The position numbers and the translations under genes were made by a program. This document shows, one piece after another, positions 2,462 to 38,939 of a stretch of DNA of 64,000 nt. The notes beneath the pieces are model-generated. The model saw only the letters and a program-made list of their open reading frames with translations, searched no databases and was not told the origin of the DNA. Within the stretch, counting starts at the first letter, position 1; the number at the start of each line of letters is the position of its first letter. The stretch lies in NCBI RefSeq assembly GCF_057098645.1, contig NZ_CM169472.1; one strand, 5' to 3'.

Positions 2462-3664
2462 TTAACGCAGCCATTCAGGCAAATCGTTTAATCCCATCGC
2501 CTGACGGATAAGTTGTGGCTTAACGCCAGGAAGCGTGTCGGCCAGTTTCAAACCAATATCACGCAGCAGTTTTTTCGCCGGATTGGTACCGGAAAACAGA
2601 TCGCGGAATCCCTGCATACCAGCCAGCATCAGCGCCGCGCTGTGCTTGCGGCTACGTTCATAGCGGCGCAGGTAAATGTACTGCCCGATGTCTTTACCCT
2701 GACGATGCAACCGTTTCAGTTCAGCAATCAGCTCTGCGGCGTCCATAAAGCCGAGATTAACGCCCTGCCCCGCCAGTGGGTGAATGGTATGCGCGGCGTC
2801 GCCCACCAGCGCCAGACGATGTGCGGCAAACTGGCGCGCATAACGCCCCGTCAGCGGGAACACCTGACGCTCGCTCTCAACCTTGCATAAGCCCAGGCGA
2901 TTATCAAAAGCGATATTTAACGCGCGATTAAATTCGTCTTCCCCTGCCTGCTGCATCCGCTGCGCTTCCTCTGGCGACAGCGACCAGACAATCGAGCAAA
3001 GATGCGGATCGCTAAGCGGTAAAAAGGCCAGAATGCCTTCGCCGTGGAAAACCTGCCGCGCCACCGCATCATGCGGTTCTTCCGTGCGTATGGTCGCTAC
3101 CAGCGCGTGATGCTGATAATCCCAGAAAGTCAGCGGAATATCGGCTTTGTTGCGCAACCAGGAATTAGCGCCGTCCGCGCCAATCACCAGACGCGCCGTT
3201 AACATACTGCCATCTTTCAGCGTCAGGAAGGTTTCGTTTTCTCCCCAGGCGACCTGCTGTAATTCTGCGGGGGCCAACAGAGTGATATCTGACGACTGCT
3301 GCGCTTTGTTCCACAGCGCGTAGTGAATCACTGAGTTTTCAACGATATGCCCAAGATGGCTATAGCCCATGCTTTGATCGTCAAACGAAATGTGACCAAA
3401 GCTGTCTTTGTCCCACACTTCCATACCGTGATAACAGCTGGCTCGGCGAGAGAGAATGTCCTGCCAGACGCCAAGACGGGTGAGTAATTTTTCGCTGGCG
3501 GCATTGATAGCCGAAACGCGCAGTTGTGGTGGTGCATCCGCCGCCAGAGGTTCCGGTACGCGCTGCTCCAGTACGGCAACGCGTAAGCCGCTACCCTGTA
3601 AGCCGCAGGCAACCGCCAGCCCCACCATGCCGCCGCCAACAATGGCTACATCAACACTTTGCAT
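2462..3664 (-). CDS. ubiI: 2-octaprenylphenol hydroxylase UbiI (VisC), FAD monooxygenase
   Basis: 400 aa; MQSVDVAIVGGGMVGLAVACGL Rossmann FAD motif. Confidence 0.93.
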   Translation of the reverse strand: MQSVDVAIVGGGMVGLAVACGLQGSGLRVAVLEQRVPEPLAADAPPQLRVSAINAASEKLLTRLGVWQDILSRRASCYHGMEVWDKDSFGHISFDDQSMGYSHLGHIVENSVIHYALWNKAQQSSDITLLAPAELQQVAWGENETFLTLKDGSMLTARLVIGADGANSWLRNKADIPLTFWDYQHHALVATIRTEEPHDAVARQVFHGEGILAFLPLSDPHLCSIVWSLSPEEAQRMQQAGEDEFNRALNIAFDNRLGLCKVESERQVFPLTGRYARQFAAHRLALVGDAAHTIHPLAGQGVNLGFMDAAELIAELKRLHRQGKDIGQYIYLRRYERSRKHSAALMLAGMQGFRDLFSGTNPAKKLLRDIGLKLADTLPGVKPQLIRQAMGLNDLPEWLR

Positions 3665-36126: not shown

Positions 36127-36550
36127 AAATTATCCTTATTTTTAGGGTACCGTCCGGCGGTAAAAATAAAATACTCGTGCGGTTTAATGAAAGCAATTGG
36201 GTACGCGAGAAGAAAAACCCCATAAACCAAAATAATAAAACCTTAAATAACAACAATATGAAATTGATATTTTTAAAGTCAACTTTGTATTTGTTATGTT
36301 TATCACAAAATCAACATTTTGTTTGTTATTGTATTTGTGATGCATATCTCTATTTATTTATTGAATGTTCGAAAACATACTTTTCTAATACAATGTTTTT
36401 TCGCTATACCCCTTTATAGATTCTGAATTCTCACCTGTCGGCTGTTTTCTCCTCATCTCATGTGACATATTCCCACACTTTACTCAAGGAAGATTGTCAT
36501 GAAAGCACTGAACCGCCCCGGGTTTCCTGGAGAGTATTTTATCTGTGAAC

Positions 36551-37438
36551 TCAGGCTGCCAGATCATTATTTCCGATGGAAGCATAATAAGCTTTTTCTG
36601 CTTCTGCCGGAGGAATATGGCCCAGCCTTTCCAGCAATCGTCGATTGTTATACCAGTCCACCCACGTGAGTGTGGCCAGTTCCACTTCTGCACGGTTTTT
36701 CCAGCTCTTACGGTGTATTACCTCCGCTTTGTAAAGACCATTGATGCTCTCCGCCATCGCGTTGTCATACGAGTCGCCAGTACTCCCTGTTGATGCCAGT
36801 AATCCGGCTTCCTTAAGCCGCTGCGTGTAGGCCAGCGATACATACTGAGAACCTTTATCACTGTGATGGATTGTGCCGGACGGCCGACGGGCCCACAACG
36901 CCTGCTCCAGTGCATCCAGCACGAATGTTGTTTCCATGGATGATGAGACCTGCCATCCCACGATGTATCCGGCGAACACATCAATGATGAACGCCACATA
37001 AACGAAGCCCCGCCATGTGCTGACGTAAGTAAAATCAGCCACCCACAGCTGGTCAGGTCGTTCTGCCACGAACTGACGGTTTACGCGGTCGCCTGCGGCA
37101 ACGGCTTTCCGGCTGATGGTCGTACGGACCTTTTTACCCCGGAGAACACCGGCAAGTCCCATAACCGCCATGAGACGTGCCACAGTGCATCTGGCCACTC
37201 TGATACCTTCCCGTAACAACTGACGCCAGACTTTACGCACACCGTATACCTTGTGATTTTCATCGTATACGCGCTGTATCTCTCTCTTCAGCCAGTCATC
37301 GCGCTGAGCACGGGCACTGCGTTTATCAGGATGATGTCGCTGTTGCTGACAGTGGTAATACGTTGACGGGGCAATATGCAGTTCACTGCATACCGGTCCG
37401 ACCCCGTACTGCTCACGCAGCTTATCCAGCAGCGGCAT
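36551..37438 (-). CDS. IS629 transposase OrfB (DDE catalytic part; expressed as OrfAB via -1 frameshift at A-run)
   Basis: 295 aa; DDE-type integrase core; orfA stop and orfB ATG share one nucleotide (TAATG) next to AAAAAA slippery run. Confidence 0.9.
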   Translation of the reverse strand: MPLLDKLREQYGVGPVCSELHIAPSTYYHCQQQRHHPDKRSARAQRDDWLKREIQRVYDENHKVYGVRKVWRQLLREGIRVARCTVARLMAVMGLAGVLRGKKVRTTISRKAVAAGDRVNRQFVAERPDQLWVADFTYVSTWRGFVYVAFIIDVFAGYIVGWQVSSSMETTFVLDALEQALWARRPSGTIHHSDKGSQYVSLAYTQRLKEAGLLASTGSTGDSYDNAMAESINGLYKAEVIHRKSWKNRAEVELATLTWVDWYNNRRLLERLGHIPPAEAEKAYYASIGNNDLAA

Positions 37439-37764
37439 TATTTTTTCCAGAGGCGGTCGAACTCCGCCTTCGCAAAATAAGCGGAAGCCTGGCGAAGGAT
37501 ATCGTTACTGCGGCGCAGTTCACGATTTTCACGTTCCAGCTCTTTCAGACGCTGACGTTCAGCGGTGGTGAGTCCACCATCACCACTCCCGGTATCCCGC
37601 TCATGCTGGCGAACCCAGACACGCAGAGTCTCCGGCGTACAGCCAATCTTTGGGGCAATGGAACAAATTGCCGCCCACTGTGAGTCATATTCATCCTGAC
37701 TTTCCAGAACCATACGAATCGCCCGCTGACGGACTTCGGGGGAAAAACGAGTATTTTTAGTCAT
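37438..37764 (-). CDS. IS629 transposase OrfA (HTH part)
   Basis: 108 aa; [57 protein letters not shown]. Confidence 0.9.
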
Positions 37765-38719
37765 CCTGTTTACCTCTTTCTCAGGGAGTTTAGTCTCCAG
37801 GATTTCCGGGGCGGTTCACACCTGTTTCATTAACCTCATTTCGCCCACAAAAATCTCTTGCTATCGCCATTGGCGTGCTTGCCGTGGTTGTGCTGCCATT
37901 TCTCTCGTATTACACCGTTAATGAAGGTGAACGCGGCATTTTGCTGCGCTACGGAAAAATCGTAAAAGTTGCCGAGCCGGGTCTGGGTTTTAAGATCCCG
38001 TTTATGGAAAGCGTGGAGAAAATTTCCACGCGTAATCAGGCTGTGGTCTATCAGGGATTACAGGCCTACAGCCGCGACCAGCAACCGGCACAAATGACAG
38101 TATCAGTCAGCTTCCACATTAAACCTTCAGAAGCAGGCGCGGTTTATACCACCTACAACACCATTGAAGCATTAAAAGATCGTCTGATTGTCCGTCAGTT
38201 GCCAACTCAACTGGAGAACGTTTTCGGCCAATATACCGCCATCAGCGCTGTACAGGATCGTACAAAACTGGTTCAGGATCTGCAAAATGCCATGCGCAAA
38301 GCCGTTGTTGGGCCAGTGGTAATTGACGGGGTCCAGATTGAAAATATTGATTTTTCTGACGCTTATGAAAAGTCGATTGAAGACCGAATGAAAGCAGAAG
38401 TCGCCATTGCCACGCGTAAGCAAAATCTGGAAACAGAGAAAATCCAGGCGCAAATAGCGGTAACTCAGGCCCAGGCAGAAGCAGACAGTAAACTGGCGGC
38501 AGCCAAAGCAGAAGCGGAAACTATTCGCGTAAGAGGCGCGGCAGAGGCTGAAACTATTCGTTTAAAAAGTGCGGCTGAAGCAGAAGCAATCCGCCTGCGC
38601 GGTGAAGCTCTGCGGGATAATCCCGGACTTGTAGCCCTCACCACTGCCGAACGTTGGGACGGTAAACTGCCCGATACCATGATCCCCGGCAGCACAGTTC
38701 CGTTTATCTCTACTAAGTA

Positions 38720-38748
38720 AAAAAAGGGCCGCTTTCGCGGCCCTTGAG
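38720..38748 (+). terminator. rho-independent-like hairpin after SPFH gene (AAAAAGGGCCGCTTTCGCGGCCCTT)
   Basis: GC hairpin directly after stop codon; same 21-nt hairpin recurs at 38897-38925. Confidence 0.55.
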
Positions 38749-38756
38749 AGTGATGG

Positions 38757-38890
<134 letters not shown>

Positions 38891-38896
38891 TAATCT

Positions 38897-38925
38897 AAAG
38901 GGCCGCTTTCGCGGCCCTTCTCACA
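38897..38925 (-). terminator. tktA terminator hairpin (AAGGGCCGCTTTCGCGGCCCTT)
   Basis: hairpin immediately downstream of tktA stop; bidirectional. Confidence 0.6.
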
Positions 38926-38939
38926 AAACGTCTTACTGA

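Follow-up and report, generated by a model that had tools for sequence, protein, structure and literature searches.

An IS629/IS1203-group element in an accessory SPFH gene of an O145:H28-lineage Escherichia coli

The window, i.e. the whole stretch of 64,000 nucleotides analysed here, contains an accessory gene of the SPFH superfamily that is split by an insertion sequence (IS) of the IS629/IS1203 group. It is considered very probable that an intact element was recently inserted at nucleotide 10 of this gene in an O145:H28-lineage E. coli, and that the outcome is a simple loss of function. In this reading, the locus hit by the transposition lies between cmtB and tkt and consists of one accessory gene, and the target CAC would have been duplicated upon insertion. 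The promoter, the ribosome-binding site and the first three codons would have been displaced by 1.3 kb from the rest of the gene, and the native start would now drive only a chimeric open reading frame (ORF) of 56 codons. This type of event is thoroughly known; what is new is restricted to the present allele and to the mosaic composition of its IS.

Anatomy of the element and of the split gene

The features of the interrupted locus are as follows:

36486-36508, + strand: 5' end of the prohibitin-family (SPFH) gene, cut off from the gene body and comprising the Shine-Dalgarno motif AAGGAAG, the ATG and the first 10 coding bases
36499-36669, + strand: chimeric 56-codon ORF created by the insertion, running from the native start into the IS, antisense to the orfB end
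36506-36508, unstranded: target-site duplication CAC, left copy, 3 bp
36509-37818, - strand: complete IS3-family element of the IS629/IS1203 group, 1310 bp, apparent mosaic of three natural isoforms
36509-36536, unstranded: terminal inverted repeat at the orfB end (IRR)
36551-37438, - strand: orfB, coding for the catalytic portion of the transposase (295 aa), read in frame -1 with respect to orfA
37367-37483, - strand: ALIL frameshift-stimulating pseudoknot (RF01497), full-length Rfam match, model positions 1-117 of 117
37438-37764, - strand: orfA, coding for the N-terminal portion of the transposase (108 aa; ORF list, profile search)
37440-37446, - strand: slippery A6 run AAAAAAT, site of the programmed -1 frameshift, at the orfA stop and orfB start
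37791-37818, unstranded: terminal inverted repeat at the orfA end (IRL), pairing with IRR
37819-37821, unstranded: target-site duplication CAC, right copy, 3 bp
37822-38720, + strand: displaced body of the SPFH gene, from position 2 of codon 4 to the stop
38724-38745, unstranded: G+C-rich hairpin directly 3' of the SPFH stop, scored as a terminator on the - strand only

Read directly, the left edge of the element is TGAACCGCCCCGG and the right edge is CCGGGGCGGTTCA. The right end corresponds to the reverse complement of TGAACCGCCCCGG, and the element begins and ends with TG...CA. Computed over the terminal inverted repeats, all of the 13 outermost bases match, as do 24 of 28 bases overall. The 13-mer of the termini occurs twice in the 64-kb window, both times at the IS ends and in inverted orientation, compared to 0.05 occurrences expected by chance. 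Directly adjacent to the ends are the two copies of the CAC repeat, and target duplications of 3-4 bp are described for IS629 (PMC3271280).

The coding part is likewise complete. OrfA showed no difference to the annotated copy on plasmid pZ1323HEC0422-4, and its stop overlaps with the start of orfB in the motif AAAAAATAATG. OrfB reached 315.3 bits against the NCBIfam model NF033516 (transpos_IS3; cut-off 160) at model positions 93-369 of 369, and OrfA and OrfB jointly span positions 1-369, so that the assignment to the IS3-type (DDE) transposases is based on a profile score against the whole model. The ALIL pseudoknot was found with 120.9 bits (Rfam gathering score 50, E 3.6e-32). The length of about 1.3 kb, the TG...CA ends, the frameshifted ORFs, the 3-bp duplication and the identity to known isoforms place the element in the IS3 family, IS629/IS1203 group. 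Altogether, the complete 1310-bp IS629-like element with CAC direct repeats, intact inverted repeats and an intact orfA/orfB frameshift arrangement, as proposed in a preliminary description of this DNA, was confirmed in each of these points by the ends, the ORFs, the profile search and an identity of 98.7% to annotated copies.

IS629, IS1203 and IS3411, the dominant IS of enterohaemorrhagic E. coli (EHEC) O157:H7 and O145:H28, share with the present element the 1310 bp, the TG...CA ends, the -1 frameshift between orfA and orfB, the ALIL pseudoknot and the 3-bp duplication. In O145:H28, IS629 is the most prevalent IS (PMC3893438). Since both ends, orfA, orfB, the slip site and the pseudoknot are present, the element appears structurally complete for further movement, and judged from these intact parts it is probably active.

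On the side of the gene, AAGGAAG at 36486-36492 precedes the ATG at 36499 at a distance of eight bases, in line with the good ribosome-binding site described before, and the orphaned 5' end is identical to the start of the intact coding sequence annotated by PGAP in the O145:H28 strain RM12761. Removal of the IS and one CAC copy joins 36499-36508 to 37822-38720 and yields an open frame of 302 codons (909 nt). Compared to the 'prohibitin family protein' gene of RM12761 (WP_000646940.1), this restored gene comprises no mismatch in 909 positions, and the 372-bp spacer upstream, toward cmtB, is also identical (0/372 differences). The preliminary description had predicted a restored SPFH protein of 302 aa and had proposed a comparison with genomes carrying the uninterrupted gene; both the identity to a natural allele and the Band_7 match of the product (E 5.6e-32) agree with the prediction. 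It had further placed the split after codon 3. The split itself holds true, while its exact point has to be corrected, as the break lies after nucleotide 10, inside codon 4. The exact sequence of the 56-aa product of the chimeric ORF was not found on record elsewhere.

These data also bear on the question whether the whole insertion could be an artefact, either a contig mis-join at a repeat or an in-silico construct. Flanks identical to published genomes in the parts compared, combined with a junction unique to the window, would be expected in such a case. However, a mis-join would not leave exact IS ends next to a faultless target duplication of 3 bp, and the pair of flanks re-joins to a natural allele without any mismatch in 909 positions. 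An artefact of this kind is therefore hardly credible.

Age of the insertion and mosaic make-up of the IS

The region from 38000 to 62000 of the window is 100% identical to the O145:H28 strains RM12761 and RM13516 and nearly so to many other O145 genomes. On the other side of the element, the region from 11600 to 36508 is found as one piece with 100% identity in C325, Z1323HEC0422 and Z1323HEC0399. The uninterrupted gene is present in RM12761, RM13516, Z1323HEC0422, Z1323HEC0399 and many other O145 genomes. With 161 bp spanning the left junction as query, no place with a coverage of 80% or more was found in 5426 complete genomes. The junction is known from a single sequence (n=1). As sisters with identical flanks carry the intact gene and the junction occurs in none of these complete genomes, the insertion is recent and strain-specific. 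It postdates the separation of strains that cannot be told apart in the approximately 49 kb of flank compared. The split gene has acquired no secondary mutation (0/909 compared to RM12761), and together with the intact sisters this supports the recent insertion suggested by the preliminary description.

The junction represents a clean and apparently unique marker for one strain or sub-clone of the O145:H28 lineage, with little import beyond strain typing. In addition, it extends the list of gene losses caused by IS629 in EHEC. Knock-out of genes by insertion of IS629 is documented, for example for O-rough O157 strains (PMC3271280).

In many O145 genomes (RM9872, RM12367-C1, RM11626-C1 and others), the region from 11600 to 36508 of the window matches in two pieces over about 36-37.5 kb. 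These genomes therefore contain an extra element of about 11-12.5 kb, which carries genes for a primase-helicase and a DEAD/DEAH helicase and is absent from the window, C325, Z1323HEC0422 and Z1323HEC0399.

Among 5426 complete E. coli genomes and 72,556 plasmids, the nearest full-length IS copies showed an identity of 98.6-98.7%, and no copy exceeded 98.7% over the full length. These nearest copies are annotated as 'IS3 family transposase, programmed frameshift, AL1L pseudoknot', and further matches are labelled as IS1203 or IS629 family. For the exact OrfB, no record was found in the searches. The IS629 sub-types are 4-5% apart, with IS1203 as one isoform (PMC3271280). Along the element, positions 1-690 correspond to the copy on plasmid pZ1323HEC0422-4 and positions 818-1310 to the chromosomal copy of O103:H2 strain 12009. 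In the segment between them (695-808), all 12 differences from the nearest copy are states of the classical 'IS629 family' isoform, and this segment was matched with at least 99% in 1545 records. The differences from the nearest copy are clustered and not scattered, each represents the state of another natural isoform, and no private substitution was found in the comparison with the natural isoforms. This argues against a decayed copy, and a randomly mutated IS can be ruled out on the same grounds. The element thus appears as a natural mosaic of three blocks, a pattern expected from recombination between co-resident isoforms. Compared to the known IS629 copies, a mosaic of these three isoforms as such is absent from all genomes and plasmids searched.

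The three blocks of different isoform origin and the lack of an identical full-length copy or OrfB in the collections searched would also be observed if the insertion were real and only the internal IS sequence were a consensus chimera, generated by the assembler or polisher from collapsed reads of several IS629 isoforms. However, recombination and gene conversion among co-resident copies yield the same pattern naturally. Moreover, the blocks are contiguous, both reading frames are open and the pseudoknot is at full strength. A chimera is consequently regarded as unlikely, and the natural mosaic is preferred. In either case, the junctions and the target duplication are independent of the internal IS sequence.

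Consequences for expression

In a consensus scan, the + strand showed no promoter-like site close to the junction of IS and gene, and neither IS end had an outward one. The longest remaining ORF of the displaced body comprises 281 aa and starts with the GTG at 37875. This is the first in-frame restart, at codon 22, and lies within the membrane helix of residues 15-33, so that the downstream fragment retains only half of the helix. Neither GTG 37875 nor any other in-frame start up to codon 130 is preceded by a Shine-Dalgarno motif. The promoter and Shine-Dalgarno scans thus revealed no outward promoter or restart site for the downstream fragment, and judged from these consensus scans the fragment would be silent. 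Since it has neither a promoter-like site nor a ribosome-binding site and encodes only half of the helix, the insertion allele is most likely a null, i.e. a loss-of-function allele.

It was considered whether the insertion does more than this, either because minus-strand transcription from the orfB end alters expression of the mannitol PTS operon cmtB-cmtA, located at a distance of 382 bp, or because translation from GTG 37875 yields a shortened SPFH protein. The transposase and cmtBA share their orientation, the minus strand showed no terminator-like site from 36509 to 36126, and the 281-aa ORF is still open. Against this, both IS ends lack an outward promoter-like site, and transposase transcription in the IS3 family is normally weak. 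Likewise, GTG 37875 is not preceded by a Shine-Dalgarno motif and its product would lack half of the anchor. Such additional effects are judged to be quite improbable. Read-through from the IS into cmtBA is conceivable but unsupported. Still more improbable is that such read-through switches on an otherwise cryptic cmtBA operon, or that the loss of the accessory SPFH protein was selected in an O145:H28 sub-lineage. The preferred reading thus remains that of a simple knock-out. Since the gene is interrupted here and intact in the relatives, the strain would represent a natural null mutant beside isogenic wild-type relatives and could aid studies on bacterial prohibitin-like proteins.

A search for the 281-aa truncated product gave 22 index entries. 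Eight contigs were listed. In four of them, IS1-type ends lie within the first 70 nt of the gene, each time at another position; two carried nonsense codons (TCA to TAA) and one had lost the start codon (ATG to ATA). The index comprises 20,866 blocks for the intact product compared to 22 for the truncated one (about 0.1%). An IS hot spot or an adaptive recurrent loss at the 5' end was rejected, since the truncated product makes up only this small fraction of the occurrences and the query itself selects such cases. The 5'-end knock-outs found elsewhere are ordinary pseudogenisation of a dispensable accessory gene.

The interrupted gene, its relatives and its locus

The restored protein matched Band_7 (PF01145) at model positions 2-176 of 176 in the Pfam search and accordingly belongs to the SPFH superfamily. 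It comprises a single hydrophobic helix (residues 15-33, hydropathy peak 2.33) and an Ala/Glu-rich C-terminal tail with three 11-residue AEAExIRxxx repeats at residues 233-264. Judged from hydropathy and repeats, this represents the SPFH layout of an N-terminal anchor and a helical, coiled-coil-like tail, as it had been anticipated in the preliminary description.

Among characterised proteins in the PDB, the closest relatives were HflC (E 2.4e-13) and HflK (E 9e-11), followed by QmcA (E 9e-7) and prohibitin (E 3.6e-5). HflC and HflK, the SPFH3 modulators of the FtsH protease, resemble the restored protein in the N-terminal anchor, the Band_7 domain, the Ala/Glu-rich helical tail and the lack of an NfeD partner. 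In contrast to the hflK-hflC pair, the present gene is single, and it is accessory instead of core. The scores against the NCBIfam equivalog models were well below the cut-offs, with 60.5 compared to 134.4 for HflC and 37.4 compared to 159.4 for HflK. Consequently, the restored protein is neither HflC nor HflK.

By its NCBI name, 'prohibitin family protein', the intact protein points to the prokaryotic prohibitins (SPFH4). The occurrence as a single gene without NfeD fits to the description of this subfamily (Hinderhofer et al. 2009, PMC2636767), of which the protein is a candidate member. Eukaryotic prohibitins are matched weakly, yet significantly (E 3.6e-5). To our knowledge, no function is known for any bacterial prohibitin-like (SPFH4) member. 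With the stomatin- and flotillin-like SPFH proteins of K-12, which have NfeD-type partners (QmcA/YbbJ and YqiK/YqiJ), the restored protein shares the Band_7 domain and the membrane anchor, whereas the similarity is weaker (QmcA E 9e-7) and the present locus comprises no NfeD-type gene.

Indeed, no NfeD-type gene was found at the locus. In intact loci the SPFH gene is the sole gene between cmtB and tkt, and at the locus in the window no other substantial ORF exists besides those of the IS. The NfeD-associated subfamilies SPFH1, SPFH2 and SPFH5 thus do not match the present case. The preliminary description had remarked that the usual NfeD partner was missing. The absence is correct, but it is no anomaly, since the protein is closest to HflC and HflK, and Hinderhofer et al. 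2009 (PMC2636767) describe NfeD partners for SPFH1, 2 and 5 alone, with none in the HflK/C-like and the prohibitin-like subfamily. A role of the SPFH protein in anti-phage defence was dismissed, as no PADLOC family matched at E <= 0.01.

Of 5426 complete E. coli genomes, 1830 carry the gene, and in 1818 of these a single place covers 80% or more of the query. In every locus inspected, the gene sits between cmtB and tkt. The insertion therefore concerns a poorly studied fifth SPFH protein that occurs in about one third of E. coli and is lacking from K-12. In K-12, cmtB is directly followed by tktA and the SPFH gene is absent, as had been suspected from the window alone. Compared to positions 36200-38935 of the window, an unrelated AT-rich segment of 231 bp (positions 2910-3140 of the K-12 locus, L002) replaces the 1.4-kb segment carrying the gene. 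The cmtB-tkt spacer accordingly exists with two alternative, non-homologous fillings, the K-12 type and the SPFH-gene type, and a simple deletion of the gene in K-12 is ruled out by the unrelated segment in its place.

In the spacer between cmtB and the SPFH gene, the sole sigma-70-like match is located at 36282-36253 on the - strand (TTGACT-16-CATATT) and points toward cmtB. It is a candidate for the cmtBA promoter and is untouched by the insertion.

Between the SPFH stop and tkt, the window comprises a REP-containing segment of 174 bp (38746-38920), which is flanked by two copies of the hairpin GGGCCGCTTTCGCGGCCC at 38726-38743 and 38900-38917. Other lineages (e.g. L014) show one hairpin only, and tkt ends 46 nt past the SPFH stop. 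This looks like a REP/BIME insertion that duplicated a shared hairpin. Inside the REP-containing segment, a match to the sRNA ES036 (CssrF) was found at 38791-38833 on the - strand (53.5 bits, Rfam gathering score 37.6), which may be mere repeat sequence.
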